From a virus (lineage: Duplodnaviria; Caudoviricetes): a stretch of DNA of 58,688 bases. How positions within the stretch are numbered: position 1 is the first letter of the stretch; every line of letters starts with the position of its first letter. The DNA is taken from positions 1 to 58,688 of IMG/VR virus record IMGVR_UViG_3300037041_002703. The stretch is one strand, 5' to 3'. Under the pieces are notes generated by a model. The model worked only from the letters and a program-made list of their open reading frames with translations, had not been told where the DNA came from and made no database searches. Made by a program: the position numbers and the translations under genes. Below are positions 1-53,788 of this stretch, one piece after another.

Positions 1-1666
1 CTTCAGTGGTCAAACACTCGGGGTCTTGTTGGTAAGTAATGTCCGACAATTCTGCTGGACAAGTACCAGAAAAAGTTAAATTATCTTTTAATCCTTGAGT
101 ACCACCCCCCACTGAAATATTAAAGGGCACACCTACCTGTCTTTCCTTAAAGGTATTAAGAGGTCTTGGAATTATTTCCTCAAAATCCTCACAAACCATA
201 AAGAGTTTACCATTAACAAAAATCTTTAATGTTCCTTTTCTGAATTCTTTTTGCTCCAACCATAAATCAGTAATCTTAACTTGAGTAGTTTTGGCTGGAA
301 TATATTCGGAATATCCTTCTTCATGAGTAATTGGTGGCATAACCAAACTAACACTGTTATTTGCAGGTGTTGCTGTAAAAATTAAAGCTTCGACCTGACC
401 CAAACCTCCTAGGTAATAAAGGTCACCACAATCAAAAAATGCGTTTCTTTCAAATACTGCGTCTATTTGTACCCAGTGTTCTAATTCCGGATAAAGTGTG
501 TTTACGCAACTATCGAATATTCCTTTTGTTGAACACCACTCGACAGTAGTTACCCCAGTAACATAAGTAGTTCCAGTTAGACAAGTTCCAGATGGAACAC
601 AACTTCCAGTAATAAGATATTCTTTGACACAAACTCTTGGATTTCCAGTATCCCCGCTAAATCTGATTGACATGGCATTTGAAACACCATCATACAAAGG
701 GTCTAATTCCTTTATCGAGGCTTCTGTTGAACAACTACAAGGACAACCACAACCACAATTGGATGAAGTTACACCTGATGGTTGGTACACAGGGATACAA
801 TCCGCACCCGTTCCACCACTAATAGAACAACCACAGGTGTGCATACAAGTGAGTCCTGAGGTTACTCGAGTATAACCTGTGTCTGAAGAAGGACTACCAT
901 CGGCATAGTGGTAAAACTTATTTTCAGCCCTGCTTCCCATAAAGAAGAAGGTTCCCTTATTTTCCGGATATCTGGCATTAAGTCCAATATTTGTATCACC
1001 AGTAAATTGGTATTTGAGAAGCATCTCAACAGACCAACCCTGGCTTACTCTTGTCGGAAAAACTTCATAGTCATAACCCTGTAGCTTATAAAAACCCTGG
1101 TAAAATCCGCCATTTAGTTTAGCAACGGTTCCAATATCTCCTCCAACATCAACGTAAGATAAACCATATGAATAAGAATTGTCGTTCCACAATCTATTTT
1201 CGGGTGTTGTGTTACCCGAAATAGGGTGCATTTTGAAACGTCGGTCGTAAATATATCTATTATAAGTTTGGGCGGTTGTTGTATACAAGCCAGTGTATGC
1301 TGTCATAGTTATACCAGACATTTCTTTGGTAAGACCATTGTCAATTCCTGTTAAGCCAACATCACAAATTTCTGTTGTCACCGGACAAAAATTTGGGTCT
1401 ATATCATCTGGATTATAATAGTTTTCAGAAACAATCGTATCATAAAGAAAATCATTAACTAGAGGAGAAATGGTAGTTCCTGAGGAATTAAAATCAAATT
1501 TGAATGGCATACGATTTCCATCATCTTCAGCAATAAGAAGTGGTGAAAAAATAACCTCTTGGTTGAAGTCTCGTGCGTCATCTGCCAAACAGAAATCTAA
1601 GATTTCGTTAACCGGTTTCAGACCAATTTTCCGATAATTGTATTGATTGATATTTTGATATGCCAT
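1..1666 (-). CDS. Putative virion structural protein, Cys/Thr/Gly-rich, runs off the window edge (absent from the ORF track)
   Basis: Manual translation from ATG 1666: MAYQNINQYNYRKIGLKPVNEILDFC...CMHTCGC...NCGCGCPCSCS...ECLTTE. The segments checked are in one frame down to position 1. TATTTAT motif 9 nt upstream. Confidence 0.75.
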   Translation of the reverse strand, partial: MAYQNINQYNYRKIGLKPVNEILDFCLADDARDFNQEVIFSPLLIAEDDGNRMPFKFDFNSSGTTISPLVNDFLYDTIVSENYYNPDDIDPNFCPVTTEICDVGLTGIDNGLTKEMSGITMTAYTGLYTTTAQTYNRYIYDRRFKMHPISGNTTPENRLWNDNSYSYGLSYVDVGGDIGTVAKLNGGFYQGFYKLQGYDYEVFPTRVSQGWSVEMLLKYQFTGDTNIGLNARYPENKGTFFFMGSRAENKFYHYADGSPSSDTGYTRVTSGLTCMHTCGCSISGGTGADCIPVYQPSGVTSSNCGCGCPCSCSTEASIKELDPLYDGVSNAMSIRFSGDTGNPRVCVKEYLITGSCVPSGTCLTGTTYVTGVTTVEWCSTKGIFDSCVNTLYPELEHWVQIDAVFERNAFFDCGDLYYLGGLGQVEALIFTATPANNSVSLVMPPITHEEGYSEYIPAKTTQVKITDLWLEQKEFRKGTLKIFVNGKLFMVCEDFEEIIPRPLNTFKERQVGVPFNISVGGGTQGLKDNLTFSGTCPAELSDITYQQDPECLTTE

Positions 1667-1675
1667 AAACTACAG

Positions 1676-1702
1676 ATAAATACCTTTCTTTTGAGTATTT
1701 AT
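1676..1702. promoter_or_regulatory. Back-to-back TATTTAT putative late promoters for divergent genes
   Basis: ATAAATA at 1676-1682 (TATTTAT on minus) and TATTTAT at 1696-1702 on plus, each just upstream of an ATG. Confidence 0.6.
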
Positions 1703-1714
1703 AGTAAAAAAAGT

Positions 1715-2515
1715 ATGCTGAAATTAAACGAGGAATATTTTGGTTCAAACTATTACTTCCTCCTTCGTGAAAAGAAGGATGGTGGACACTTATGGTTTTC
1801 TGTCGCTAATACTATAGTAGAAGCCAGAAAAAAGGATGAGTATGTGAAAGTTCCCAAGGAAAAAATTGAAGCTTTGAGAAAACATTTGGAAAAAATTATT
1901 AGTGGAAAAAAGAAAAAATCTACAAAAGAAATAAAAGGAGAGGTGGACGAAATCGTGAACTCGGACGGTACCTTATCAACCTCTAACGTACCAATACTAG
2001 ACCCCAAGGTCACTCCGCGTAAAACTATGGACCAAACAGTTCAAGCCACCACCCAACCAGGAAATTATTTGGCCTGGTCGTACAGGGGGGGGAGAACATA
2101 TTATTCAGAATCAGAAATGAAAGAAGAAGATATGTCATCTGCTTTTGGTTATGAAGAAACAAAAGATTTGCCACCAGAGGAAACTATAGAAAAACTTGAA
2201 GATATGGGTGTTGACAATCCTGTTGAAAGAGCAATTGAATTTGGTAAAGACCCAAGTATTTCCCAGAAAAAAAAGGAAAAAGGAAGTATCATGAGAATTC
2301 GTCTCCAGGAAAAAGAAGTTATAAAAAAAAATCAAAAGGACCAATTAAAAAAAATTATTGAAGATATACTTGTAGGAAAAAAGAAAAAAAAAGATTTTGT
2401 AAGTAATCAAAATAAAAAAGAACTTTTAACCAAAGGAGAAATTATTGATTTAATAACTAAAAAAAACTTACCAATTGGTGATAACAAAGTAATCAACTCT
2501 TCAAGTGAACAGTAA
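1715..2515 (+). CDS. Hypothetical K/E-rich phage protein
   Basis: ORF 1643..2515. ATG 1715 (MLKLNEEYF) is preferred because it follows TATTTAT and an A-rich tract. Confidence 0.7.
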   Translation: MLKLNEEYFGSNYYFLLREKKDGGHLWFSVANTIVEARKKDEYVKVPKEKIEALRKHLEKIISGKKKKSTKEIKGEVDEIVNSDGTLSTSNVPILDPKVTPRKTMDQTVQATTQPGNYLAWSYRGGRTYYSESEMKEEDMSSAFGYEETKDLPPEETIEKLEDMGVDNPVERAIEFGKDPSISQKKKEKGSIMRIRLQEKEVIKKNQKDQLKKIIEDILVGKKKKKDFVSNQNKKELLTKGEIIDLITKKNLPIGDNKVINSSSEQ

Positions 2516-4322: not shown

Positions 4323-5537
4323 ATGTCAAAAATACAAATATTAGTTGTCCCTTCGGACAGATTCGGTGTAGGAAAATTTCGTTCAATAGAACCACATATA
4401 TTTTTACAAAATAAATTTCCTGAAGATTTTCACGTGGAAATTGATTTAAATCCCCCAATGGAGGATTTGAATTTTTATAAAAAATTTCAAATTGTAGTAT
4501 ACCATCGAAGTATTACCAATGATTTTGAAAAATCGTATGCATTAGTTGAGCTGCTAAAGAAAGAAGGGATTATTTGTGTCTGTGACATGGATGACTACTG
4601 GAATCCCACAAAAGACCATCCAATTCATGATATTATTATGTTTAATAAAATTAACGAAAAAATTGTTAACAGTATTAAACAAGCTAGTTATGTTACAACA
4701 ACAACAACACTTTTTGCTGACGAAATAAGAAAGTACAACAAAAATGTTTTTGTACTTCCTAATTCTATTAATCCAGACGAAGCACAGTTCAAAGAAGTTA
4801 CGCAACAATCAGATAAACTAAGAATTGGTTGGTTAGGTGGTTCATCTCACTTATCAGACATAAAAATCTTAGACAACTCATTTGCAAAACTTGGAATGGA
4901 CTATAAAGATTTACAATTTGTTCTTTGTGGTTTTGATACTAGAGGTAGTATCACAGAAATTAATTCCCAAACTGGTGAACATAAAAAAAGAAATATCAAA
5001 CCTGAAGAAACAGTTTGGGCAATGTATGAGAAAGTATTCACGCAAAATTACAAGTACGTTTCACCAGAATATGAGAAAACTCTTAAAAAGTATGCACAGG
5101 AAGAGTATCCAGAATACTCGAATGAATCCTATAGAAGAGTTTGGACACTACCTGTTACTTCGTATGCTAGGAATTATGCTAAGTTTGACGTATCTTTGGC
5201 ACCGATTAAGAACCATATGTTTAACAAAATGAAATCACAACTTAAGGTTATTGAAGCTGGCTTTTATAAAAAAGCACTGATTGCTAGCGATTTGGGTCCA
5301 TATACTCTGGATTTAAAACATTGTTTGAAAAATGGTGAGTTTGTTGACGGAAACGCTTTATTAGTTGATGAAAGTAGAAACCACGGAGATTGGGCCAAAT
5401 ACATTCTGAAACTTTTGAAAAACCCGAACTTAGTTACTGACATGGGAGAACGACTCTATGAAACTGTTAGTAAAAAATATGATTTGAATATCGTAACAAT
5501 TGACAGAGCTGAAATTTACAAAAGTTTAATTAAATAA
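4323..5537 (+). CDS. GT-B fold glycosyltransferase (GT4-like)
   Basis: DMDDYW, IGWLGGSSH..D, DVSLAPI..FN.MKSQLKVIEAG...LIASD. Confidence 0.85.
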   Translation: MSKIQILVVPSDRFGVGKFRSIEPHIFLQNKFPEDFHVEIDLNPPMEDLNFYKKFQIVVYHRSITNDFEKSYALVELLKKEGIICVCDMDDYWNPTKDHPIHDIIMFNKINEKIVNSIKQASYVTTTTTLFADEIRKYNKNVFVLPNSINPDEAQFKEVTQQSDKLRIGWLGGSSHLSDIKILDNSFAKLGMDYKDLQFVLCGFDTRGSITEINSQTGEHKKRNIKPEETVWAMYEKVFTQNYKYVSPEYEKTLKKYAQEEYPEYSNESYRRVWTLPVTSYARNYAKFDVSLAPIKNHMFNKMKSQLKVIEAGFYKKALIASDLGPYTLDLKHCLKNGEFVDGNALLVDESRNHGDWAKYILKLLKNPNLVTDMGERLYETVSKKYDLNIVTIDRAEIYKSLIK

Positions 5538-6877: not shown

Positions 6878-7265
6878 TGGTAATGCAATCAGTCCAGTTT
6901 TACCGGATGGTCTAAAAAACTATCTAATTGATATTGATGGTACAATAACTGACGATGTGCCAAATGAAGAACCTTGGAGGATGAGCACCTGTCTACCTTA
7001 TGAGGGCTCTATAGAGCTTATAAATGCTTGGTACAATGAAGGGCACATAATCACTTTTTTTACTTCGAGAACAGAAGCTCATAGAGAAGTAACAGAAACA
7101 TGGTTAAATAAATATGGATACAAGTATCACGGGATACTAATGAATAAACCCCGAGGAGGGCAATATCATATTATTGATAATCATGTAATAAAAGCAACCA
7201 GGTTTAATGGAACTTGGAGTAAATTGATAAAAAAAAATCATACAATAGAAGTTTTTGAAAAATGA
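6846..7265 (+). CDS. Small HAD-superfamily phosphatase
   Basis: LIDIDGTI motif I, FFTSR motif II, MNKPRGG..IIDN. Confidence 0.75.
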   Translation: MKMDLGQQEYNGNAISPVLPDGLKNYLIDIDGTITDDVPNEEPWRMSTCLPYEGSIELINAWYNEGHIITFFTSRTEAHREVTETWLNKYGYKYHGILMNKPRGGQYHIIDNHVIKATRFNGTWSKLIKKNHTIEVFEK

Positions 7266-8896
7266 TAACAATCGGATACTCTACAAGAAAACACGACCCA
7301 GAATTTATTGAATATCTCAAAAAGTCATCTGGTAATTATAAGTACGTTGAAGTTATTGAGAAGATAAACAATGGTGAAAAATCCCTCTCAGAAGTTTATA
7401 ACGAAATTCTTTCAGAATCTAAAAGTGAAATTGTAATCCTGTGTCACGACGACATTTATTTTGATACCAATGCCTGGTATTCAAAAGTTTTGAAAAACTT
7501 TGAAAAAAACAATTTTGGTATCATTGGAGTTGCTGGGACAACCAGTCTTCCAAAATCAGGAATGTGGTGGGAGGACAGACGAAAAATGATTGGAATTGTA
7601 AATCATGAAAGTAATGGAAAAAAGTGGGAGTCAAAATATTCGGGTCCCCAAGGAAATGAAATTCGAGAAGTCGCTTTAGTAGATGGTCTTTTCATTTGTA
7701 TTCACAAAAAAAGAATTAAGAAAAATTTTGTAGAAGAATTTGAAGGGTTTCATTTTTATGATTTACCATTCTGTGTAGAAAATTATTTAAACGGTGTTAA
7801 AATAGGTGTCTGCACTAATATAAGAATAACACACAAGTCAATTGGACAAACAAACCAACAATGGGAAGATAACAAAAAATTATTTGTTGAAAGGTATGCA
7901 AATAATTTACCGATAAAAGTCCCATTTGACCAAAAACGTCAAATGAAAGTTTTATTGGCTTGCATGTTTTTTAGAACTTTTACAGGGTCTGAAGTTTATG
8001 TTTATGAACTTGCAAAAGAACTACAGAAATTAAACTGCCAAGTAACAGTACTTTCTCAAATTGGCGGACCTCTTACTGATTTAGCAAAAAAAGAAGGTAT
8101 AAAATGCCTATCATTCGAAGAAGCTCCCGGATTCAAAATGGGTGATGGTAAATGGTTGGTGATGGGTCCAGATAACAAACCTCAAGTTTCAAACCCAACA
8201 ACATTATACAAAGTCGCTGAAGTTGATTTTGACATTATTCATATTCAACACAAACCAGTTGCTGAAAGAATAGTTAATCTTTACCCGAATATTGATAAGA
8301 TTGCTTCAATACATTCAGAAGTTATAGAACTTGAAGACCCAGTAATCCACGATTCGATTAAGCATTACATTGCAATACGTCCTGAAATCAAAGACCATAT
8401 TGTTGAAAAGTTTGGTATTTTGGAAGAGAATATTTCTGTGATTTATAATCCTATTAACAAAAACAGATTCCCTACGTTACCAAAAAATGAAAAAGGATAT
8501 ATTTTGTTTGTTGGAACTGTAGACTATCTAAGAGAGCTAGCAATTAAAGATGCTGGAGAATATGCAATATCCTTAGGAAAGGAACTATGGTTAATTGGTG
8601 AAGATAAATCAATTTATTTGAAAAGTTATTTGAATAACCCAAGCATTAAACATTTCCCATCTACTTGGAATCTCAAACCATTTATTGAAGGTGCTTATGA
8701 AACCGCAGGTATTCAATTAGGTAGAACAACTATTGAAAGCTGGATGAGTGGAAAAGATAGTTGGATTTATAAAGTAAATGAAAATGGTGATATTCTTTCT
8801 AAAGAAAAAACTTCACCCCCAGAGGATATCGAAAAGTTTTACGCTGATAATGTTGCAAAACAAATAAAAGAACAATATATCAAGATTTTGTCATGA
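7262..8896 (+). CDS. Two-domain glycosyltransferase (GT-A/GT2-like plus GT-B-like)
   Basis: N-half has ILCHDD and FHFYD. C-half has TGSEVYVYELAKEL and GRTTIESW. Confidence 0.8.
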   Translation: MITIGYSTRKHDPEFIEYLKKSSGNYKYVEVIEKINNGEKSLSEVYNEILSESKSEIVILCHDDIYFDTNAWYSKVLKNFEKNNFGIIGVAGTTSLPKSGMWWEDRRKMIGIVNHESNGKKWESKYSGPQGNEIREVALVDGLFICIHKKRIKKNFVEEFEGFHFYDLPFCVENYLNGVKIGVCTNIRITHKSIGQTNQQWEDNKKLFVERYANNLPIKVPFDQKRQMKVLLACMFFRTFTGSEVYVYELAKELQKLNCQVTVLSQIGGPLTDLAKKEGIKCLSFEEAPGFKMGDGKWLVMGPDNKPQVSNPTTLYKVAEVDFDIIHIQHKPVAERIVNLYPNIDKIASIHSEVIELEDPVIHDSIKHYIAIRPEIKDHIVEKFGILEENISVIYNPINKNRFPTLPKNEKGYILFVGTVDYLRELAIKDAGEYAISLGKELWLIGEDKSIYLKSYLNNPSIKHFPSTWNLKPFIEGAYETAGIQLGRTTIESWMSGKDSWIYKVNENGDILSKEKTSPPEDIEKFYADNVAKQIKEQYIKILS

Positions 8897-9621
8897 TTAA
8901 GGTTGTAAGCTGTTTTTGGAATGCTGAAAAATATATTGGAAAATGTATTGAATCGTTGCAAATGCAAAAGTTTAAGGACTTTAAAGTTTACCTTATAGAT
9001 GATATGTCTACGGACAATTCAGTTTCCAAAATAGAAAAACTGATAGAGGAGGATATGAGATTTGAGTTGATTATAAATAAAGAAAAAAAATTTAAACTAA
9101 GAAACTTAGATGAACTCATACGGACTTTTGATGACGATGATGTTGTTGTCGAACTCGATGGAGACGATTGGTTATATTTACCAACAGTACTTGAGGAGAT
9201 TAACAAAACGTATCAAGACTCATCAGTTTGGATTACTAATGGTTCTTTTATGTATTCAAATGGTTCCAGAGGATTTTCTGCAAAATGTAACGCTTTAACC
9301 ATAAGAAAAGACGCTTTTCAATTTTCACACTTGAGAACTTGGAAAGCATTCCTGTGGAAAAGTATTCCTATTGAAAATTTCAAAGAAACCAACGGAGAAT
9401 ATTTCAAATCAGGTGCTGACGTTGCATATACCTTTCCTTTATTAGAGTTGGCTGGTGAAAAACACTACAAATTTATTTCTAGTATACTATATGTTTATAA
9501 TGCAAACTCCCCTTACAATGACCATAAAGAAGGTAGCGCAAGTGGTGGTTTAAATGAACAGTCCAGAGTAGCCAATATTATAAGAAAAAAAACACCCTTA
9601 AAACAACTTTTTATAGAATGA
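8893..9621 (+). CDS. GT2 glycosyltransferase
   Basis: NAEKYI.KCIESL..Q, IDDMSTDNS, ELDGDDW. Confidence 0.88.
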   Translation: MIKVVSCFWNAEKYIGKCIESLQMQKFKDFKVYLIDDMSTDNSVSKIEKLIEEDMRFELIINKEKKFKLRNLDELIRTFDDDDVVVELDGDDWLYLPTVLEEINKTYQDSSVWITNGSFMYSNGSRGFSAKCNALTIRKDAFQFSHLRTWKAFLWKSIPIENFKETNGEYFKSGADVAYTFPLLELAGEKHYKFISSILYVYNANSPYNDHKEGSASGGLNEQSRVANIIRKKTPLKQLFIE

Positions 9622-10367
9622 AAATGAAACAACACGAAAGAATATCTGAATGGGTAAAATCTTATGCTGAAAAAAATAAAATAAAATCATTGGTTGTTGG
9701 AGTTTCGGGGGGTATAGATTCTGCTGTTGTTTCCACCTTATGCGCTATGACAGGTTTACCCACGCATTGCGTTCTAATGCCAATTCATCAAAATCCTGAA
9801 CACACCAAAAGGGGTTCGAACCATATTAATTGGTTACAAACTAAATTTGAAAGGGTTGATTCACATGAGTTCAATTTATCGGAAGTTTATGATATCTTTG
9901 TTGATACTATGTCTTACGCAAAAAGTGAATTAGGGTTTGCAAATTCTCGTTCAAGATTAAGAATGACTGCATTATATCAACTAGCTTCGAGTACTAATGG
10001 TATTGTTGTGGGTACCGGAAATAAAATCGAGGATTTTGGTGTTGGTTTTTTTACCAAGTATGGAGATGGTGGTGTAGATATTTCACCAATAGCAGATTTC
10101 ACAAAAACTGAAGTATACGAAATCGCTAAACATTTAGGTATAAATCAAGAAATTATTGATGCAACACCAACAGATGGTTTATGGGGCGATGATAGAAATG
10201 ACGAAAGCCAAATTGGGGCGACTTACCCTGAGTTAGAATGGGCTATGGAATTTAAAAACAATAGAAATATTACGGAAAGAGAACAAGAAGTTTTATCAAT
10301 TTACAAAAAATTAAATTCTCAAAATAAACATAAAATGTTACCAATACCCATTTATAAAAAATCATGA
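9618..10367 (+). CDS. nadE: NH3-dependent NAD+ synthetase
   Basis: VSGGIDSAV PP-loop, NSRSRLRM, GTGNKIE, FFTKYGDGGVD, PTDGLW, DESQIG. Confidence 0.93.
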   Translation: MKMKQHERISEWVKSYAEKNKIKSLVVGVSGGIDSAVVSTLCAMTGLPTHCVLMPIHQNPEHTKRGSNHINWLQTKFERVDSHEFNLSEVYDIFVDTMSYAKSELGFANSRSRLRMTALYQLASSTNGIVVGTGNKIEDFGVGFFTKYGDGGVDISPIADFTKTEVYEIAKHLGINQEIIDATPTDGLWGDDRNDESQIGATYPELEWAMEFKNNRNITEREQEVLSIYKKLNSQNKHKMLPIPIYKKS

Positions 10368-11533
10368 AAATAGGTGTAATAGGCGCTGGAAGACTAGGAA
10401 TTACGTTTGCATTATTGTGTGAAAAAGCGGGTTATGATGTTATTGTTTCAGATATTAGACAGGAATACATAGAAAAACTCAATAATAAGACTATTGATAC
10501 AGCTGAGCCAGAAGTCTTATTGATGCTACAAAAATCCAAAAATTTAAAAGCAACTCAAAAAAACAGTGAAGTAATTTCAGAGTCAGATGTGATTTATACT
10601 TTTGTACAAACACCATCTCTCCCATCTGGAGAATATGACATTACTTATCTAATGGAAGTAGTCGAAGATTTTGAAAAATTTGAAAACCATCAACAAGAAA
10701 TTCAAAACAAACTTTTTGTGATTGGTTGTACAACAAATCCAGGAGATACAAAAACAATTGAAGAAAAATTAGAACCTCTTAGTGTGATTGTTGCCTACAA
10801 CCCAGAATTTATTGCTCAGGGAGAAATAGTTAAAGGTCTTGAATATGCAGATTTAGTTCTTGTTGGAACTGAAAACTTAGAAACAATAAATATTTTAAAA
10901 CAAATATACGAAAAAATTCAAAAAACAGATGTTAAAATGTGTCCAATGTCTCCCACAGCTGCTGAAATTACAAAAATAGGTATTAATTGTTTTTTGACAA
11001 CAAAAATAAGTTATGCCAATATGATTGGTGAAATTTTAGTATCCTCAAAATTACATAATGAAGTTGATAAAGTTTTGGACACAATTGGTAAAGATAGTAG
11101 AATTGGACATAAATATTTGAACTATGGTTTCGGTTTTGGAGGACCCTGCTTACCAAGAGATAATCGAGCTTTGGGCAATTATGCAAAAAAAGTGGGTCTT
11201 GAAACAAATCTTCCTTATACAATCGATAATTTCAATTTAGAACATTCAAATTTTTTAAAAAGTTATTTCATAGGTCAAAACCCAAACAAAGAAATACCTT
11301 TTGTTTTCAACTACATTTCTTACAAAAAAGGGACAGATATGTTAGTAGAGTCCCAACAACTAAAATTAGCAAAAGATTTACTAGATGAGGGATATTCTGT
11401 CAACATTATTGAAGAAGATTCCATTTTAAACAATTCACAATTTATTAATGAAATTGAATCTGACTATCCTAATCAAGTTAAATTTTATAAATTAGGTTCA
11501 AATCCGAAGGGATTTAAAATAAATATGAATTAA
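10364..11533 (+). CDS. UDP-glucose/GDP-mannose 6-dehydrogenase family protein
   Basis: GAGRLG Rossmann motif, VQTP, NPEF, AEITK...N, GFGGPCLPRD catalytic Cys. Confidence 0.9.
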   Translation: MKIGVIGAGRLGITFALLCEKAGYDVIVSDIRQEYIEKLNNKTIDTAEPEVLLMLQKSKNLKATQKNSEVISESDVIYTFVQTPSLPSGEYDITYLMEVVEDFEKFENHQQEIQNKLFVIGCTTNPGDTKTIEEKLEPLSVIVAYNPEFIAQGEIVKGLEYADLVLVGTENLETINILKQIYEKIQKTDVKMCPMSPTAAEITKIGINCFLTTKISYANMIGEILVSSKLHNEVDKVLDTIGKDSRIGHKYLNYGFGFGGPCLPRDNRALGNYAKKVGLETNLPYTIDNFNLEHSNFLKSYFIGQNPNKEIPFVFNYISYKKGTDMLVESQQLKLAKDLLDEGYSVNIIEEDSILNNSQFINEIESDYPNQVKFYKLGSNPKGFKINMN

Positions 11534-11538
11534 AAATT

Positions 11539-12363
11539 ATGAATACAAACAATATTTTTGGAACTTGTTATTTCATGGGCGGTCTAGGTAATCAAATGTT
11601 TCAAGCCGCACACGCATTATCGCAAGGATGGAAAAAAGGGGTTGAAACAAAATTTAAAGCAGTATCTTGGACACCAATGCAAGGTAGACAAACTGACAAC
11701 TATCGTAACAATATTTTTAGAAATTTAAATTTTGTTGAAGATTTTGGTCATGTTGGAAGAGTAAGCGAAGGTCCGTGGGAATACACTGAGTTAAATCCTC
11801 AGTGGGACCAACCCCAAGAATTTTATGGTTATTTTCAAAGTAGTAAAAATTTTTTAGGTTACGATAAAGAAATACAAAAAACATTCGAACCTACTGAGGA
11901 GTTTACTGACCGAATGATAAACAGGTATCCAGAACTTACTCAAGAAAACACATTATCTGTTCATATAAGACGTGGAGATTGTTTTATGAATCCGGACATA
12001 CACCCAATGGTCACGAAAGAATATGTTGAAAGAGCCCTTGAGTTGATACCAGAATATTCAAACATTTTTATTTTTTCCGATGACAAAATTTGGATAAAAG
12101 AAAATTTTAATTTACCAAACATTATAATTGTTGATGAGTTGGAGGATTACGAAGAAATGTGGTTGATGTCTCTTTGTAAAAATCACATAATATCAAACTC
12201 AACATTTTCTTGGTGGGGAACTTTCTTAAACAAAAAAGAAAATAAAAAAATTATTGCTCCTTCAATATGGTTTGGGCCAAGAGGTCCTCAAAATTTTAAA
12301 GATATTTACGAACCTTACTGGACCGTATTAGAGGTTACATATAAAGATGGTTGGTTATATTAA
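11539..12363 (+). CDS. GT11 alpha-1,2-fucosyltransferase-like
   Basis: GGLGNQMFQ, GYFQS, VHIRRGD, ISNSTFSWWG. Confidence 0.9.
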   Translation: MNTNNIFGTCYFMGGLGNQMFQAAHALSQGWKKGVETKFKAVSWTPMQGRQTDNYRNNIFRNLNFVEDFGHVGRVSEGPWEYTELNPQWDQPQEFYGYFQSSKNFLGYDKEIQKTFEPTEEFTDRMINRYPELTQENTLSVHIRRGDCFMNPDIHPMVTKEYVERALELIPEYSNIFIFSDDKIWIKENFNLPNIIIVDELEDYEEMWLMSLCKNHIISNSTFSWWGTFLNKKENKKIIAPSIWFGPRGPQNFKDIYEPYWTVLEVTYKDGWLY

Positions 12364-12367
12364 AGAT

Positions 12368-13177
12368 ATGGTTAAAATTAACATGTTATCAAGAAATTTT
12401 GCTCATGACAAAGGGTCAACAGCAAACAAAGCCCCCAAAAATATTGAGTGGGCATTCAATTCTTATGAAAATCCAATATCAGTATATTTGGATAATGACG
12501 CTATGCAAGGGGTACAAGATAAATCAAATGGCAAACTAAGTTTTTTGTGGCTAATAGAATCAAAAAAATTTGATGGAGGTGCAAGTGAGACGATAAAAAA
12601 TAATTTAGAAACTATCTTGGACACTTATGAACAAATTTGGACGCACAATGATGAGTTGTTAGCTTTAAACTCAAAATTTAAATGGGCACCAGCATATGGT
12701 AGTTACATTACCGATTTTGGTGTTCACCCAAAAAACAAACTTGCATCGATGATTGTGTCTAACAAACGTTGGACACGTCAACATGAAATTCGTCATGATT
12801 TTGCTATGGCAAACAAAACCAAGATTGATGTTTATGGTAGAGGCACTCATGAGATTGCAAAGAAAGAAGAGGGACTTAAAGATTATATGTTTTCATTTGC
12901 GGCAGAAAACGACACCTATGATACCTATTTTACTGAAAAGATTTTAGATTGTTTTGCTACTGGAACGATTCCTATCTACATGGGAACAAAAAAAATTGTT
13001 GAATATTTCAATCCAGAAGGTATTTTATTTTTTGATGGTACTTATGATTTGGACACTTTGACGCCTGACCTATATTACTCCAAAATGGATGCAATAAAAG
13101 ACAATTATGAAAGAGTTCAAAAATATAGTATTTTGGATGATTGGTTATATGAAAATTATTTGATTCATTATGTCTAA
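12368..13177 (+). CDS. GT10 alpha-1,3-fucosyltransferase-like
   Basis: YMFSFAAEN...YFTEKILDCFATGTIPIYMG is the GT10 donor-binding motif. The start is either 12347 or 12368. Confidence 0.8.
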   Translation: MVKINMLSRNFAHDKGSTANKAPKNIEWAFNSYENPISVYLDNDAMQGVQDKSNGKLSFLWLIESKKFDGGASETIKNNLETILDTYEQIWTHNDELLALNSKFKWAPAYGSYITDFGVHPKNKLASMIVSNKRWTRQHEIRHDFAMANKTKIDVYGRGTHEIAKKEEGLKDYMFSFAAENDTYDTYFTEKILDCFATGTIPIYMGTKKIVEYFNPEGILFFDGTYDLDTLTPDLYYSKMDAIKDNYERVQKYSILDDWLYENYLIHYV

Positions 13178-13877
13178 AATTTGTTTGATACAACAGCCAG
13201 CTGGGATAGGAGATATTTTTTTTATACAAAAGATTGCTAACCACTTCATAAACAAAGATTATGATGTGTGGATTCCAGTAATACCGCAATTTGAATATAT
13301 CAAAGATTATATTAAAATACCGAGGCTTCATTTAATTTCAGAACTTGAAGATTTCCCCTATAAAAATCTATATGGCACTGGAAGTTCAGTCCCAGTGAAA
13401 TTTGATAATGAAGATGTTTTTCTTCCAATTCAAAATTTTGATAGAAATTTCCCTGGAATGTCAGTCATGATTGCAAAATACAAAATGTTAGGTATAGACC
13501 ATTCTGATTGGGTAAACTTTTTTGATTTTGAAAGAGATTTGGAAAGAGAAGAAAAATTGTTCCAATTTAAAAATCCCGAAAACAAAGAATACATTTTTGT
13601 AAATCGAAATTTTGGCTCCCCTCCAGATTCAAAATCATGTCCTCACATGGGTGATTATAACAACTCTATTGAAATGGAATATTTAGGTTGGGATAACTTA
13701 TTCGATTGGATTGGATTGGCCCTTAAAGCTAAAGAAATTCATACTGTTGAGACTTCTCTTTTGTATATTCTATACAAATTAGGTGTTGAAAATGTTACCG
13801 TCTATTCAAGACATAATCCACCTTCTTTTGCCCAAGTAGAAGGATTTTTTAACAAAAATTGGGTATACAAATTATGA
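13170..13877 (+). CDS. Putative glycosyltransferase-like protein
   Basis: AGIGDIFF N-terminus, AKEIHTVETS, and position inside the glycan cluster. Confidence 0.5.
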   Translation: MSKICLIQQPAGIGDIFFIQKIANHFINKDYDVWIPVIPQFEYIKDYIKIPRLHLISELEDFPYKNLYGTGSSVPVKFDNEDVFLPIQNFDRNFPGMSVMIAKYKMLGIDHSDWVNFFDFERDLEREEKLFQFKNPENKEYIFVNRNFGSPPDSKSCPHMGDYNNSIEMEYLGWDNLFDWIGLALKAKEIHTVETSLLYILYKLGVENVTVYSRHNPPSFAQVEGFFNKNWVYKL

Positions 13878-14524
13878 ATACAAATTTAAAAAACCAACTG
13901 AAAAATTATTTTGAAAATGAAAGCCTGAGTTATGAAACTGGATATCCTGAAAGGGACGTTAATTGGATGCAATCAAATTTAATTCCAAAAATTGAGAATA
14001 TTATTAATACAAGCGTGCATAAAAATTGTTTGGACGTCGGTTGTGCTTTTGGATATTTTACAAAAATATTAAATAACACTTTTGAAAATTGCTATGGAAT
14101 AGACTTGTCCGAAAACAGAATTAATTATGCAAAGCAATATGAAACAAACACTTTGAAGTTTGTGCAAGCAGATTTAACTGAAAGTTTCAAAGATAAATTT
14201 GACATCAAATTTGATTTCATGTTTACTAACGCGGTATTACCACACATACCATTAGAATTCAAAGCATCTGTTTTCAAAAACTTAGCGGAAATCGCAAAAC
14301 CGGGATGCTTACTTGTTATGTATGACGGAATGTTGAATGATGATAATACTCATAAACATGATAACAAACAACAAGCGAATTTTGATGGTTGGAATAATTC
14401 AGAACTTATCAGAGTTGTTTTTATAAGTGAAAAATGGTTAAAAGAAAATGCTGAGGATTGGGAAATAATTAGCATTACAAATGTTGGTTTTGCAACGGAA
14501 GAAATAATATTAAAAAGAAAATAA
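13874..14524 (+). CDS. Class I SAM-dependent methyltransferase
   Basis: CLDVGCAFG, YGIDLS, FDFMFTNAVLPHI, KPGC. Confidence 0.88.
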   Translation: MNTNLKNQLKNYFENESLSYETGYPERDVNWMQSNLIPKIENIINTSVHKNCLDVGCAFGYFTKILNNTFENCYGIDLSENRINYAKQYETNTLKFVQADLTESFKDKFDIKFDFMFTNAVLPHIPLEFKASVFKNLAEIAKPGCLLVMYDGMLNDDNTHKHDNKQQANFDGWNNSELIRVVFISEKWLKENAEDWEIISITNVGFATEEIILKRK

Positions 14525-14526
14525 TT

Positions 14527-15183
14527 ATGAGTCTATTTGGTGCATTTTGGGACAAAGACCCAAATCCTGTTGGCGAAGAACAATTTGGTAATAATAAAGG
14601 ATTATTTTACAATTTAAATTGGTACCCAAAAGGGGTTTTGCACATTGGGGCTTGGGATGCTTGGGAAGCAAAGCAATATGCTAATTATTGCGGAAATAAT
14701 TCTGTGTTTATAGAAGCAAATCCACAATCGTTCGAAAGATTTAGAAATGAAATCGAGCAATTTGGACAAAAGATTTATAATTTTGCTGCTTGGAATATTG
14801 ATGATATAGAAATGAATTTATATTGTCCTAGTGGTAATGAAGATTCAAGTTCTTTGCTAGAACAAAAAGGGTATGTTCTTAAAACAAAAACAATTACTAT
14901 CAAAACTCTTTTTGAAAGAGAAGCTCTACAATTCGAAAATTTTGATTTACTTAACATTGACACTGAAGGTGCTGAATTACAAGTACTCGAAGGAATCGGT
15001 GATAACATTAAAAATTTTACATACATAATCATCGAAGTCAGTGATATTGGAAGTGAATTCGATAAAAACGTGAACCAATATATTATTGAAAAAGGTTTTG
15101 AATTTATTCGTGATAGTACACATCACAGAAGTAGCATAAACGAAAAAATATTTTGCGACAAACTTTATAAAAAAATTGCATGA
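14527..15183 (+). CDS. FkbM-family methyltransferase
   Basis: LHIGAW, FIEANP, LLNIDTEGAELQVLEG. Confidence 0.88.
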   Translation: MSLFGAFWDKDPNPVGEEQFGNNKGLFYNLNWYPKGVLHIGAWDAWEAKQYANYCGNNSVFIEANPQSFERFRNEIEQFGQKIYNFAAWNIDDIEMNLYCPSGNEDSSSLLEQKGYVLKTKTITIKTLFEREALQFENFDLLNIDTEGAELQVLEGIGDNIKNFTYIIIEVSDIGSEFDKNVNQYIIEKGFEFIRDSTHHRSSINEKIFCDKLYKKIA

Positions 15184-16010
15184 AAAGTTCTATTGTTGTT
15201 TTAGCAAAAAATGATAATTACGGAAATAATTTAACCCATCGGGCAAAGATGTCTATCAACTCTATGGTTGAAAACTTTGATGAGGTTATTGTTGTAGATT
15301 GGAAAACAAGAAACAGAAACACCTTGTTATCAACGATAATTGACGATGTACCTCACCTGGGTAAAATAAAAAGTATTGAGGTAAGTAACAAACTTCTCAG
15401 AGAAAAATACCCCAACTTGTATCAATGGAATATTTTAGAGGCTATTGGACGGAACATTGGTATCAGAAGAGCAACAGGAGATTGGGTAGCATCCTCAAAT
15501 ATTGATATTGTAACAACCCCATTAGATATATCGCAGCTTAATATTTCAGAATTTTACACAACATCAAGAAAAGATATTGAAGAAAATTTCCATTTAGGGC
15601 AAATGGATTATGAGGTTTTAAAAAATCACCTTTGGGAAAATCAAAATAATTACTCGGGTAAACCACAAATTGATAGTCCAACCGACAAATGGTCTTTGGT
15701 TGTTTGCTGTGGAGATTTTCAAATAGGATACAGAGACATTTGGCACAAAATCAAAGGATTTGAAGAATCTGTTTTGTATGGATGTGGTATTGACACTAAT
15801 ATAATGAAGAAAGCATCCAGTTATGCGCAACTTAAAATTCTACCCTACAATGTTTTTCATTTAAATCATGGAAAAGTGGGAGAAAGATTCGATGGGGAAG
15901 TTACACCCCCCATGTCAAATCAACATACTATAATCCAAGATTTTGACCAGACAACAAACAGTGAAAACTGGGGCTTGGCTGACGAAGAATTAATAATTGA
16001 AACTATATGA
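15180..16010 (+). CDS. Putative GT-A fold glycosyltransferase
   Basis: NDNYG, EVIVVDW, RNIGIRRATGDWV..SNID, GFEES, FHLNH. Confidence 0.65.
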   Translation: MKSSIVVLAKNDNYGNNLTHRAKMSINSMVENFDEVIVVDWKTRNRNTLLSTIIDDVPHLGKIKSIEVSNKLLREKYPNLYQWNILEAIGRNIGIRRATGDWVASSNIDIVTTPLDISQLNISEFYTTSRKDIEENFHLGQMDYEVLKNHLWENQNNYSGKPQIDSPTDKWSLVVCCGDFQIGYRDIWHKIKGFEESVLYGCGIDTNIMKKASSYAQLKILPYNVFHLNHGKVGERFDGEVTPPMSNQHTIIQDFDQTTNSENWGLADEELIIETI

Positions 16011-16642
16011 AAATAATAATTGTCGGTGGAAATGCCGGAGCTAAAATTGCTGCAGAAATCTTTGCGATGAATTTTCCTCATTGTGAGATTTTTTATGCGG
16101 AAACTTACTTAGAACAAGAAAAAGTAAATCAACTGGTTGATGATTATAAAAAAGTCCCGGAACTCCTTAGAGAGGGTAGTTACGAATATTTCATCGCAAC
16201 TGGTGATAATTTCCAAAGAGCAGAGATTTACAAATACATCTGGACTAATACGGTGATAGAACCTTTGAATTGCATTCATGCATCAGCAATAATCTCTTCT
16301 TCTGCTAAAATAGGTTATGGCAATTTGGTTTGCCCAACAGCTGTAATTCACACCGATGCCGAGATTGAGAACTGCACCATTATCAACACTGGGGCGATAA
16401 TCGAACACGATTGTAAGGTTAAAAACTTTGCTCAGGTTTCACCCAATGCAACCCTATGTGGTAGGGTAGGCATCGGGGAATATTGTTTTATAGGTGCTGG
16501 CTCAACTATAATCCCCAACAAGCAAGTAAGTAATAAATCTGTTGTCGCTGCTGGAAGTGTAGTCATTGAGTACATCCCACAGAATGTAATGGTTGCAGGT
16601 ACCCCCGCAAAAATCAAAAAGAAAGATTATTATGCAATTTAA
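16007..16642 (+). CDS. NeuD/PglD-family sugar acetyltransferase (left-handed beta-helix)
   Basis: IATGDN..R, IINTGAIIEHDC, hexapeptide repeats, VAGTPAK. Confidence 0.9.
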   Translation: MKIIIVGGNAGAKIAAEIFAMNFPHCEIFYAETYLEQEKVNQLVDDYKKVPELLREGSYEYFIATGDNFQRAEIYKYIWTNTVIEPLNCIHASAIISSSAKIGYGNLVCPTAVIHTDAEIENCTIINTGAIIEHDCKVKNFAQVSPNATLCGRVGIGEYCFIGAGSTIIPNKQVSNKSVVAAGSVVIEYIPQNVMVAGTPAKIKKKDYYAI

Positions 16643-17762
16643 TATACCCATTTTCCGATTAAAGTTTTCTCTTGGGTTCAAATTAAAGTTCCTTCGTGGA
16701 GCTTGGGACATCCTTTCCTCTGATAGACCTCTTGGTGAATCCAAATACGTAAAAGAGTTTGAAACAAAGTTTGCGAATCTTGTCGGAAGCAAATATGCTG
16801 TTGCCTGCAGCAACGGAACCACGGCAATTGAGCTGGCCCTTAAAACAATAGATGTTGCAGGAAAAAAAGTCCTATGTCCCAGCAATACATTTTTCGCAAC
16901 AACTGTTGCAATAAATAATGCAGGTGCCGAGGTAGTATTAGCTGATTGCGAAAAAGAAACTTTTTCCATTTCTTATAACCACCTTAAAAAAATTATCTCT
17001 GAGGACAAAATCGCAGCAGTGGTGATTGTTCATATTGGTGGTATAATCTCTAAAGACATCGCCAAGATTGTTAGCCTTTGCAAGAAACACAACATCCCCC
17101 TTATTGAAGATGCGGCTCACGCACAAGGTTCACAAACCTTGAATTTTACAGCCGGAACAATAGGTGATATTGCATGTTTCTCATTTTTCCCCACAAAAGT
17201 TATGACAACTGGAGAGGGTGGAATGGTTACCACAAATAACAAAGAATACTTCGAAAAAATCAAATCCCTAAAAAACTTTGGTAGAGATAATCAAAACGCT
17301 GGGATTATTATAAATTCCCAGGGTAACAACTTCAAAGTTCATGAGTTTACCGGACTAATGGGTTCCTTGGAATGCGATAGAGTTCTAGGTAGGGTAGCTA
17401 AAAGAACCTCTTTGCTGGATAGATATATGCAAAACCTGGAAGGGACAAGTTTCAAAGTAATTAACCAAAAAGAGGGTAGATGTTCCTACTACAAATGTAT
17501 TCTACTTTCTCCCTATAATACTGATGACCTTAAACAATACTGCAAGGACCATTCAATTTCTTTAACTGGGGAAGTGTACAAAATACCCGTGCACAAACAA
17601 CCCCTATATGCAGATAGTTTTGATGCTACACAACTAAAAAACACTAACTATATTGCAAATAAACACATTTGCCCCCCACTTTATCCGGAGCTATCCCTTA
17701 AAGAGGTGGATTACATCTGTGAGGTTTTGAAAAAATTTGATGATGAAAAACAGAGTCGCTAA
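16632..17762 (+). CDS. DegT/DnrJ/EryC1/StrS PLP-dependent sugar aminotransferase
   Basis: SNGTTA, IEDAAHA, FSFFPTKVMTTGEGG with the PLP lysine. Confidence 0.92.
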   Translation: MQFNIPIFRLKFSLGFKLKFLRGAWDILSSDRPLGESKYVKEFETKFANLVGSKYAVACSNGTTAIELALKTIDVAGKKVLCPSNTFFATTVAINNAGAEVVLADCEKETFSISYNHLKKIISEDKIAAVVIVHIGGIISKDIAKIVSLCKKHNIPLIEDAAHAQGSQTLNFTAGTIGDIACFSFFPTKVMTTGEGGMVTTNNKEYFEKIKSLKNFGRDNQNAGIIINSQGNNFKVHEFTGLMGSLECDRVLGRVAKRTSLLDRYMQNLEGTSFKVINQKEGRCSYYKCILLSPYNTDDLKQYCKDHSISLTGEVYKIPVHKQPLYADSFDATQLKNTNYIANKHICPPLYPELSLKEVDYICEVLKKFDDEKQSR

Positions 17763-21060: not shown

Positions 21061-21090
21061 AAACTTATGATTTTTGTAAAATAGATTAAA

Positions 21091-27092: not shown

Positions 27093-27094
27093 TT

Positions 27095-53710: not shown

Positions 53711-53788
53711 ATTAATAAATATTTTTTACAGTGCGTTTGGAAATGTCCGTTTTTTGTTTAACCTTTGTACAAATCAAATTATAAAACC

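Follow-up and report, generated by a model that had tools for sequence, protein, structure and literature searches.

An [S/T]-G-x-T motif packed into unrelated tail proteins of uncultured giant phages: a candidate tag for sugar attachment

In some uncultured giant phages, unrelated tail proteins carry the four-residue motif [S/T]-G-x-T at a density far above chance, and we propose this motif as a testable candidate tag for sugar attachment. The starting point was a single stretch of viral DNA of 58,688 nucleotides (the window), which is approximately 20% of the genome of an uncultured jumbo phage with a T4-like capsid. Comparison of the window with related genomes that either carry or lack the motif points to two phage-encoded glycosyltransferases (GTs) as the best candidates for the step in which the site would be read.

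Enrichment of the motif in two proteins of the window

Protein A (positions 2-1666, minus strand, start codon at 1666) comprises 555 aa from the N-terminus of a larger virion-type protein and contains 11 copies of [ST]GxT (minus strand, 1472-1483, 1307-1318, 1208-1219, 992-1003, 869-880, 848-859, 809-820, 767-778, 647-658, 566-577, and 548-559), as compared to a mean of 0.84 in composition-preserving shuffles. Protein B (32940-34454, plus strand; 504 aa, complete, of no known family), encoded between a baseplate-hub-like gene and the capsid gene, contains 7 copies (plus strand, 33138-33149, 33282-33293, 33495-33506, 33621-33632, 33672-33683, 33909-33920, and 34011-34022) vs. 0.70 expected. All of the sites that an earlier note on this DNA had listed for both proteins are present; its description of the former as a roughly 555-aa open reading frame (ORF) does not extend to the full protein, as this minus-strand ORF runs off the window start and its C-terminus is therefore missing. 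Not one of 20,000 shuffles matched the observed count for A, nor did any of 20,000 for B, and the remaining 62 ORFs of the window (17,790 aa) hold 5 copies vs. 7.3 expected, bearing out the earlier expectation of an enrichment over shuffles that is confined to virion-type proteins. The single copies reported previously were recovered, namely TGST in the capsid insertion, SGVT in the mucin-like protein, and TGIT in the 29065 protein, with two unlisted copies now added, TGGT in an ADH-like gene (17737-18774) and SGNT in a 92-aa ORF (25755-26033). The capsid protein itself (36813-38609) is not enriched; its one site is located away from the C-terminus, at residue 321 of 598.

The signal is specific to this arrangement of residues. 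In a scan of all residue-residue-x-residue patterns occurring at least three times, SGxT and TGxT alone qualified in both A and B (for SGxT in A, p = 9.6e-8 in a scan of 8000 patterns). Control patterns with a moved hydroxyl residue or glycine (T.G[ST], [ST].GT, and G[ST].T) are at expectation in A, and [ST]GxS does not occur (0 in A, 0 in B); overlapping or shortened variants rise above expectation in A, including TG.[ST] (4 vs. 0.86), [ST]GT (4 vs. 0.84), G.T, and [ST]G. As the earlier note had held, the known sequons are distinct from the enriched motif: D-[ST]-[AILMTV] is not enriched (1 vs. 1.92 expected in A, 1 vs. 2.05 in B), and neither, at a significant level, is N-x-[ST] (5 vs. 5.5 in A; 12 vs. 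7.98 in B, a count reached by 7.8% of shuffles, p = 0.08). The Asp-box (BNR) repeat has the consensus S-x-D-x-G-x-T-W; the regular expression S.D.G.T[WYF] finds 0 instances in A and 0 in B, and there is no BNR Pfam match. The suggestion that the flanks are unrelated and that no repeat domain is involved agrees with self-BLAST (E <= 10) of A and of B, each of which returned the self-match alone and no internal repeat, and with profile-profile comparison of A and B by hhalign, which found no homology (probability 0.2%).

A chance, compositional, or DNA-level origin of the signal deserves mention, given that the motif was picked after viewing the sequences and that the proteins are rich in Ser, Thr, and Gly. 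Against it stand the shuffles, replication in B and in other genomes (G007, below), and the restriction of the enrichment to a subset of proteins. The codons used across the 18 sites of A and B are varied, drawing on the two Ser codon families and on every Gly and Thr codon, which places the signal at the protein level and rules out a DNA-level motif. By virtue of the shuffles and the replication we regard this reading as already refuted and leave it hardly any probability. As a further control, a set of 28 T4 proteins (25 virion or packaging proteins plus uvsW, gp52, and gp22) displays no such enrichment (18 observed vs. 13.3 expected).

Both proteins belong to large families. Protein A has 1948 relatives (506-954 aa among the matches listed), and its architecture is a LamG/ConA-like core, with conserved LamG-like blocks, bearing a Cys-rich insertion; the relatives extend into a Pro/Thr linker and then a variable C-terminus, and PF13385 is recorded on one of them. 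We infer a virion role for A. Protein B has 3017 relatives (529 representatives after clustering at 50%) and weakly matches tail fiber phrog_12321 (E = 3.2e-4). Its syntenic context, PhoH-GT-GT-...-B-...-capsid, is conserved in the 80 related loci that were examined, as far as their flanks extend. Neither protein matches a Pfam family or, by tblastn, any of 50,697 phage records, and an Atlas search with B returned its own viral clusters alone. Profile searches of the PDB gave matches at E > 0.1 alone for alignment A1 and a match confined to the C-terminal part beyond the window for alignment A2.

Motif grammar, carriers, and conservation of sites

The genomes compared comprise a motif-rich set (G001, G007, and G013, the last a record 58% complete, together with the motif-rich fragment G008, 32% complete) and a motif-free sister lineage of four records, including the complete 351-kb genome G010, which constitutes a single independent contrast in every lineage comparison. 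The grammar of the motif was derived from a pool of 26 enriched proteins, in which, since the pool was selected by the motif, only the comparison of one variant with another is informative. Position 1 is restricted to S/T (NG/DG/AG/GGxT occur at 0.6-1.3 times expectation), position 2 holds either G (6.9 times expectation) or A (3.6 times), and position 4 is T, the alternatives S, V/I, and N being found at 1.7, 1.0, and 0.66 times expectation, respectively. The variable position x is never occupied by K/R/H (0/249) and rarely by P (0.19 times expectation), and at position -1 W, F, V, and I are enriched and charged residues are scarce. In its extended form, hydrophobic-[S/T]-[G, less often A]-(not K/R/H/P)-T, the motif has the character of a short linear site for recognition on tail, baseplate, and fiber proteins of these uncultured jumbo phages, which have a T4-type capsid.

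Its carriers are diverse. The 10 enriched proteins of G001 display no BLAST similarity among them, and the carriers include the tail sheath, in which the conserved C-terminal sheath domains contain none of the 7 sites, as well as a long-tail-fiber-like protein in G007, a genome in which TGxT occurs 109 times (vs. 19.7 expected) and SGxT 85 times (vs. 16.8). One carrier in G001 has SprB repeats, which may themselves account for the sites of that protein; this repeat is also the sole hint of Bacteroidota that came from the data of this analysis.

Close relatives retain the sites, while x is free and S and T interchange. For 7 of the 11 sites of A, the motif is present in at least 117 of the 121 sequences aligned (the query and 120 close relatives), x and the choice of S or T varying; the conservation excess of motif residues is significant solely at position 1 in A (p = 0.001, for aligned sequences that are not independent). 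Among distant relatives the sites turn over, and several are located in clade-specific insertions. In A, 7 of the 11 sites fall in the poorly alignable Cys-rich insertion, and 5 of the 7 sites of B are at indel-prone alignment columns; like the placement of the sheath sites, these positions bear indirectly on the surface exposure that the earlier note predicted. The B family tree contains one clade of about 37 representatives with 0-1 motifs, most other clades having 2-8 and zeros being scattered.

These patterns have to be weighed against a purely structural reading, in which [ST]-G-x-T would be a turn or strand-cap element of beta-rich fiber or decoration domains, multiplied with insertions and repeats and with nothing attached. 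A hydrophobic residue at -1 and a strict beta-branched Thr at position 4 fit a beta-strand or turn, although the exclusion of K/R/H at x is not obviously required by a turn alone. Periodicity speaks for it as well, for the inter-site spacing in G007 has maxima at 16, 18, and 21 residues, and repeated units of the fibers contain some of the sites; on the other hand, the same four residues recur in proteins without detectable homology or repeats, and the T4 sheath, baseplate, and fiber proteins are not enriched as a set. Insertions bearing such an element could explain the lineage pattern, several sites being in lineage-specific insertions, yet 36 of 108 full-length relatives of B do without any motif. 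The one site of A that is alignable across all lineages bears on both sides: its Gly is invariant, and the motif-rich sequences read SGNT, TGFT, TGTT, or TGVT vs. NGNN or YGNN in the motif-free ones. Motif-free homologs retain the fold-defining blocks and the Gly, and not the S/T or the T. We consider the structural reading unlikely, although by no means negligible.

Lineage contrast and candidate enzymes

The excess is visible at the level of whole genomes. Observed vs. expected totals are 123 vs. 71.4 for G001, 257 vs. 80.8 for G007, and 111 vs. 42.3 for G013, as compared to 38 vs. 35.9 for G010 and 8 vs. 8.6 for G006 on the motif-free side. Ortholog-like pairs of G001 and G010 differ accordingly: 11 vs. 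0 sites for A, 8 vs. 0 for B, 7 vs. 1 for the sheath, and 5 vs. 0 for a 995-aa protein. No replacement sequon was apparent in the large proteins of G010, where no 3-residue pattern of any kind is strongly enriched. The earlier note had anticipated that related phages without the GTs would be free of enrichment, and G010, with its total at expectation and its A, B, and sheath homologs at 0, 0, and 1, conforms to this in one contrast. As the homologs of A, B, and the sheath are motif-free in the sister lineage, which is devoid of two GTs described below, a trans-acting reader appears more likely than a requirement of the fold. With a single independent motif-free lineage, the covariation with GTs could also be a coincidence of shared ancestry. 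An alignment-based scan for a second such lineage (alignment A4) covered the best 80 of 567 loci, and scans with P0246, P0289, and P0380 did not find one: the 24 loci counted, mostly of the superlineage of the window and with 2 further loci of one scan left out, have 3-8 motifs each.

Eight families are common to G001, G007, and G013, and neither blastp nor tblastn finds them in G010: two glycosyltransferases, a NUDIX protein, a thioredoxin, a thymidylate synthase, and three small unknowns. Matches to PF00535 number 4, 4, and 4 in the motif-rich genomes vs. 1 and 1 in the motif-free ones. The motif is thus found across unrelated proteins and tracks the presence of the candidate enzymes, as a sequon would, within the one independent contrast. 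Pro/Thr linkers were considered as a co-varying second target and rejected, being found in the lineage of the window alone (G001, G008, and the 51116-51994 protein of the window); G007 and G013 are without them.

A pattern that spans several proteins and holds throughout a lineage requires a trans-acting reader without saying which, and the site might serve another such factor, in phosphorylation, sulfation, acylation, binding of an assembly chaperone, or docking of a decoration protein. A sulfotransferase-family gene with a conserved neighbor is present in G001 and G007, in the latter inside the motif-rich fiber gene block, and absent from G010 and G011; three small families of unknown function, as noted, also track the motif. 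However, the sulfotransferase was not found in the motif-rich G013 (in a record 58% complete), there is no kinase-like family among the eight differential families, and the two GTs are the only enzymes of this set that could act on protein and adjoin a large sugar-synthesis cluster. We rate a factor of this other kind as fairly improbable.

Both GTs of the eight-family set lie in the window, and their products are the best candidates for the site-reading step. The first (4323-5537, plus strand; 404 aa), a putative GT-B-like glycosyltransferase and the leading candidate for a reader or initiating enzyme, is present in 8 of 8 motif-rich records with a completeness of 58% or more vs. none of the 4 motif-free records including G010; a search of the motif-rich fragment G008 (32% complete) did not recover it. 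Its relatives are labeled by their sources as "glycosyltransferase involved in cell wall biosynthesis," PF00534 being recorded on 3 of 120 among the matches listed, and the named Atlas clusters closest to it bear PF00534 or PF13692. For the window protein itself there is no Pfam match at E <= 0.001 and no PDB relative by profile search, and its G001 ortholog matches PF00534 at E = 0.0015 (18.5 bits, below the cut-off of 26.4). The second candidate (7262-8896, plus strand; 544 aa) is a two-domain glycosyltransferase combining Glyco_tranf_2_5 (PF13712, 105.5 bits, cut-off 27) and Glyco_transf_4 (PF13439, 49.2 bits, cut-off 28.5); PF13712 occurs in 3 of 3 motif-rich genomes (G001, G007, and G013) vs. 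0 of 2 motif-free ones (G010 and G011). NCBIfam models gave nothing above cut-off for the candidate enzymes.

A glycan and nucleotide-sugar cluster (8893-24016, plus strand), delineated by Pfam matches, follows. It encodes a GT2, a UDP-glucose/GDP-mannose dehydrogenase, GT11-like and GT10-like fucosyltransferases, and an epimerase/dehydratase; it further encodes an NAD synthase, a SAM methyltransferase, two FkbM methyltransferases, a hexapeptide acyltransferase, a DegT aminotransferase, a Zn-dehydrogenase, and a HAD and nucleotidyltransferase fusion. This cluster may feed protein glycosylation by supplying and elaborating the sugar; phage GT clusters may instead serve DNA modification or a change of the host surface, as put forward in PMC12619734. 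Closer to the structural module, which they adjoin, are a GT1-like gene (26037-27092) and a GT2 gene (27095-27901), both with weak Pfam matches (26037-27901, plus strand) and syntenic in all related loci whose flank reaches. Homologs of this pair are found in the same order, at 30% identity, in the motif-free contig L105. As the motif-free lineage keeps it, the pair is rejected as a sufficient reader, and it is not the adjacent cluster in its entirety that separates the lineages. The earlier attribution of glycosylation to the adjacent cluster is thereby upheld in part: the sister lineage does lack PF13712 and the GT-B-like homolog, whereas the nearest GT pair is retained there.

The mechanism we favor, while granting it somewhat under an even chance, is O-glycosylation by a phage enzyme in the host cytoplasm. 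The enzyme would recognize the motif on tail, baseplate, and fiber proteins, one of the two hydroxyl residues of the motif would receive a sugar, and the nucleotide-sugar and glycosyltransferase genes of the phage itself would make and extend that sugar. In this scheme we infer the sugar attachment itself, the enzyme, the residue used, and the identity of the glycan.

Relation to known glycosylation systems and significance

The general O-glycosylation sequon of Bacteroidota, D-(S/T)-(A/I/L/M/T/V), resembles the present motif as a 3- to 4-residue sequon distributed over many unrelated proteins, and differs in that it is not enriched here. The site of action of this host system is outside the cytoplasm, the compartment in which virion proteins assemble, and a phage-encoded reader would therefore be needed. 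Sequons of the N-x-S/T type are used by oligosaccharyltransferase and by cytoplasmic HMW1C-type N-glycosyltransferases, the latter acting on folded adhesins. They are likewise short, and their middle position is free apart from certain disallowed residues; unlike them, the motif described here is without Asn and needs hydroxyls at positions 1 and 4.

Among phages, the nearest parallel is with the mycobacteriophages, in whose virions glycans were located at the C-termini of capsid and tail-tube subunits (Freeman et al., 2023, as summarized in PMC12619734). By that summary, phage-encoded glycosyltransferases are proposed to decorate the structural proteins of the phage itself (PMC12619734), as we suggest here. 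In contrast, the capsid protein of the window has one, non-C-terminal site, the motif is scattered inside sheath, baseplate-region, and fiber-type proteins, a short sequon-like pattern is implied, and the host phylum and phage group differ. Giant viruses (chloroviruses and mimiviruses) encode their own glycosylation machinery (PMC9614988, PMC7019647, and PMC5408694); they share with the window phage a large viral genome with its own nucleotide-sugar pathways, methyltransferases, aminotransferase, and GTs, and differ in having eukaryotic hosts and capsid or fibril targets. The "moraphages" (PMC12619734), jumbo phages from fresh water that have genomes of 200-307 kbp and for which Bacteroidota hosts are predicted, may be likened to the window phage as large aquatic phages with GTs. 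Four of their near-core orthogroups are putative GTs, for which a role in DNA modification, host serotype, or the virion is left open, and the paper describes no motif (PMC12619734). Literature searches for SGXT, TGXT, and SHAEG as sequence motifs returned no description, and an [ST]GxT sequon was not found in print. As far as we have seen, phage particle self-glycosylation has so far been documented in mycobacteriophages, apparently with no sequon described for it.

Overall, and with a little less assurance than for the mechanism taken alone, we put forward the following broader proposal. Abundant freshwater jumbo phages may encode a cytoplasmic O-glycosyltransferase system with an undescribed sequon, hydrophobic-[S/T]-[G/A]-x-T, which would coat the sheath, baseplate region, and fibers and not the capsid; the sequon would have been gained many times in unrelated proteins and be absent from a sister lineage without the enzymes. 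Should the motif prove structural, it would still be an unusual lineage-specific signature of tail proteins, useful for annotation. If it tracks specific GTs, it would be possible to predict from sequence alone which phages have sugar-coated tails and which of their proteins are coated. A system of this kind, if true, would constitute a compact pair of enzyme and tag and would provide a role for the large glycan gene clusters of uncultured jumbo phages.

Enrichment of [ST]GxT in two proteins of the window

Counting of [ST]GxT in 64 translated, hand-picked long ORFs of the window yielded 11 copies in protein A (555 aa; LamG/ConA-like core with a Cys-rich insertion) against a shuffle mean of 0.84, 7 copies in protein B (504 aa; 32940-34454, plus strand) against 0.70, and 5 in all remaining ORFs pooled (17,790 aa) vs. 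7.3 expected from composition. The two high counts, already reported in an earlier note from reading of the sequence, were thereby confirmed, and chance is excluded as their source, since none of 20,000 composition shuffles per protein attains the observed number. The ORF of protein A, which that note had placed at 1-1666, lies on the minus strand at 2-1666 and is open at the window edge; the note's list of single-copy proteins stands, with two further single copies present in the window.

A scan of 8000 residue-residue-x-residue patterns returned SGxT and TGxT as the sole patterns with at least three occurrences in both A and B (p 9.6e-8 for SGxT in A). Overlapping or shortened variants (TG.[ST], [ST]GT, G.T, [ST]G) exceed expectation in A, reversed or shifted ones (hydroxyl or Gly displaced) are at expectation there, and [ST]GxS is found in neither A nor B. 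The 18 sites employ both TCN and AGY serine codons as well as every Gly and Thr codon; the signal therefore resides at the level of protein, not DNA. The suggestion that no repeat domain is involved was borne out, as self-BLAST (E<=10) revealed no internal repeat in A or B and profile-profile comparison no homology between them; the motif is likewise distinct, as proposed, from D-[ST]-[AILMTV] (the Bacteroidota sequon) and N-x-[ST], neither of which is enriched in A or B. A control set of 28 T4 proteins (25 virion or packaging proteins including sheath, baseplate and all fibres, plus uvsW, gp52 and gp22) gave 18 copies vs. 13.3 expected.

Conservation and distribution of the motif among relatives

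Neither A nor B has a match among 50,697 deposited phage records; metagenomic relatives at E<=0.001 number 1948 for A and 3017 for B (among 8000 scored candidates each) and sit on contigs of up to ~328 kb. Most sites are kept within sets of 120 close relatives of A and of B (identity of 67% or more), with x varying and S/T swapping, e.g., at site 115 of B (SGTT, SGDT, SGST, SGNT, SGAT, SGQT) and site 150 of A (TGFT, SGNT, TGST, SGQT). In A, S/T is retained in 99.7% of alignment cells at motif position 1, compared with 70% at S/T residues elsewhere (p 0.001), and the other motif positions show the same trend below significance; the sequences being related, this conservation is no more than suggestive. 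Among 108 distant full-length relatives of B (28-58% identity), the sites of the window are mostly not retained (site 115 lies within an insertion missing from 107 of 109 alignment rows), and a mean of 1.94 motifs per protein is observed vs. 0.32 expected, with 36 of the 108 carrying none. In the B tree, the motif-free members group into one clade of ~37 representatives, apart from a few tips dispersed elsewhere.

Five of the seven sites of B fall at indel-prone alignment columns, and seven of the 11 sites of A in its poorly alignable Cys-rich insertion (548-880, minus strand; residues 263-373); with the position of the sheath sites given below, these placements may hint, indirectly, at surface exposure. 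The insertion also holds a cluster of nine of the 21 Cys residues of A (residues 274-312; C-x3-C-x-C ... C-x-C-x-C-x-C-x-C), mostly invariant in 45 relatives, which may form a metal- or disulfide-stabilised knot.

Related records were fetched whole and analyzed as crude ORFs of at least 70 aa, longest first. Substantial excess is observed in G001 (309 kb, estimated complete, 67% identity in B; 123 motifs vs. 71.4 expected), G007 (371 kb, complete, ~31% identity in B; 257 vs. 80.8) and G013 (206 kb, 58% complete; 111 vs. 42.3), and none in two records of a motif-free lineage, G006 (68 kb; 8 vs. 8.6) and G010 (351 kb, complete; 38 vs. 35.9). No G010 protein is strongly enriched, not even its giant proteins of 2116 and 2033 aa (lowest per-ORF p 0.0024, uncorrected, among 427 ORFs), and an unbiased scan of 24,000 patterns over ten large G010 proteins found nothing comparable (best p 8e-6). 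In G001, the excess is confined to about ten large proteins without mutual BLAST similarity: the homologues of A and B, a 742-aa protein, the members of a six-gene block at 86-104 kb, and the tail sheath (7 motifs vs. 1.5 expected, all seven outside its conserved C-terminal domains). The A homologue of G007 carries 17 motifs vs. 1.4 expected, and giant fibre-type proteins encoded in one block, one of them matching long-tail-fibre families, have 13-31 copies each (p 3e-44 for TGxT in a pattern scan of this genome). Across 55 orthologue-like pairs, 47 motifs were counted in G001 (18.2 expected) against 16 in G010 (12.1 expected), among them 11/0 in A, 8/0 in B, 7/1 in the sheath, and 5/0 and 7/3 in proteins of 995 and 1581 aa.

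Two further features of these genomes were recorded. One member of the six-gene block of G001, a 711-aa protein (89104-91239, minus strand; L091:9104-11239), has three SprB repeats (PF13573, E 8.7e-25), a domain of Bacteroidota gliding adhesins and, hence, a hint at the host phylum. Three giants of G007 (2089, 2006 and 1258 aa; L121:3025-15340 and L124:4421-8197) contain 105 copies of S-H-A-E-G within repeats matching phrog_25468 (a family without assigned function); a long-tail-fibre-like domain forms the end of the 1258-aa protein, and the window, G001, G006, G008 and G010 all lack the repeat.

The shape of the motif was derived from a pool of 26 enriched proteins of G001, G007 and G013, selected by the motif itself, so that only comparison between variants counts. 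Relative to expectation, [ST]GxT is at 6.9x, [ST]AxT at 3.6x, [ST]GxS at 1.7x and [ST]Gx[VI] at 1.0x, and N/D/A/G in position 1 give 0.6-1.3x; x is K, R or H in 0 of 249 cases and P at 0.19x, and W, F, V and I are favoured at position -1, where charged residues are scarce. Both hydroxyls are therefore required, with a small residue at position 2 and positive charge excluded. The strict Thr at position 4 and the hydrophobic residue at -1, as well as the periodic spacing (16, 18 and 21 residues) in the G007 fibres, would also suit the main rival explanation, a structural element (turn or strand cap) that comes with insertions and repeats specific to a lineage. The same could be said of the invariant Gly at the single site of A alignable over all six lineage representatives; yet at this site the four motif-rich sequences have SGNT, TGFT, TGTT and TGVT and the two motif-free ones NGNN and YGNN, the latter keeping the structural Gly without the motif, and we consider a purely structural element less likely. 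That homologues dispense with the motif, and that in several lineages it has built up in tail proteins unrelated to one another, speaks for a reader acting in trans and against the need of any one fold.

Genes tracking the motif

Eight gene families shared by G001, G007 and G013 are missing from the complete G010 by blastp and tblastn (1e-3), a comparison that comprises one independent motif-free lineage. Two are glycosyltransferases (GTs), both encoded in the window: a GT-B-like protein (404 aa; 4323-5537, plus strand; E 3e-82 to its G007 and 8e-153 to its G013 homologue) and a two-domain Glyco_tranf_2_5/GT4 fusion (7262-8896, plus strand). The others are a NUDIX protein, a thioredoxin, a thymidylate synthase and three small unknowns. 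The GT-B-like gene occurs in 8/8 motif-rich records at least 58% complete and in 0/4 motif-free records, and was also not found in G008, a motif-rich 32% fragment. PF13712 is present in G001, G007 and G013 and not in the motif-free G010 and G011; PF00535 has four hits in each of the former vs. one in each of the latter. The expectation that relatives lacking the GT cluster would lack the enrichment holds for the two candidate GTs, and fails for a GT1-like (weak)/GT2 pair following PhoH (26037-27901, plus strand), part of a strictly conserved syntenic block adjoining structural genes; retained in the motif-free lineage, this pair is ruled out as a sufficient reader.

A different reader, whether a chaperone, a docking protein or some other modification, appears unlikely. 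One candidate for such a modification, rival or additional, is a sulfotransferase-family gene (PF13469) in G001 (79382-79981, minus strand) and G007 (95441-96052, plus strand) with a conserved neighbour (~291-304 aa, no known family, 39% identity between the two), located in G007 within the motif-rich fibre gene block; G010 and G011 lack the pair, as does G013, which is incomplete.

Gene content of the window and the favoured reading

The window (58,688 bases, estimated at ~20% of the virus genome; GC 29%-43% per 2-kb bin, mostly 31-39%) encodes on its minus strand a gp23-type major capsid protein (36813-38609, 598 aa) with one TGST site at residue 321, whose better of two gp23 Pfam stretches spans residues 330-583, the first ~300 residues being little covered; a 948-aa T4-type portal (42724-45570; portal match 412-800) split by an intein (splicing domain 107-412) containing an HNH endonuclease; and a T4-type large terminase (45611-47371). 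A 292-aa mucin-like protein (51116-51994, minus strand) has a ~150-residue T-x-T-P / T-Q-T repeat linker, of a kind confined to the lineage of the window and lacking in G007, G013 and G010, and matches phrog_15511 at residues 73-139, a family also matched by the C-terminal part of the G001 A homologue. A ClpB-like double-AAA ATPase (53765-55792, plus strand; phrog_4871, E 5.6e-240) occupies the GC maximum of the window (42.6% vs. about 29-39% elsewhere), which would be consistent with acquisition from a host not long ago.

A dense sugar-metabolism block on the plus strand (7262 to ~28647) encodes, by Pfam, beyond the GTs already described, a GT2, a UDP-glucose/GDP-mannose dehydrogenase, adjacent GT11-like and GT10-like proteins (11539-13177), three methyltransferases (two of FkbM type, 14527-15183 and 20434-21060), a hexapeptide acyltransferase, a DegT aminotransferase, a Zn-dehydrogenase, an epimerase/dehydratase and a HAD-nucleotidyltransferase fusion. 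The GT11/GT10-like genes, of the alpha-1,2- and alpha-1,3/4-fucosyltransferase families, and the two FkbM methyltransferases suggest a fucosylated, methylated glycan. An ORF with a TTG start (1643-2515, plus strand) runs antiparallel over the initial 24 bases of A. Its translation probably begins further downstream, in which case A and the plus-strand operon with both candidate GTs would be separated by a short divergent promoter region.

As summarised in PMC12619734, self-glycosylation of mycobacteriophages places glycans on the C-termini of capsid and tail-tube subunits, an architecture unlike the present motif layout; the same paper describes moraphages, jumbo phages of freshwater for which Bacteroidota hosts are predicted and in which four GT orthogroups, their function left open, are near-core. 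Full-text literature searches for SGXT, TGXT and SHAEG as sequence motifs returned nothing relevant. Glycosylation directed by a sequon is an established phenomenon, as is self-glycosylation of phages; no earlier account is known of this motif, these targets or this group of phages. Judged from sequence comparison, sequon-directed O-glycosylation of tail surfaces is tentatively favoured, because GTs are the only co-varying genes whose products could act on protein and because they adjoin the nucleotide-sugar cluster: a phage GT would read [ST]GxT on tail proteins, with the sugar supplied by that cluster.
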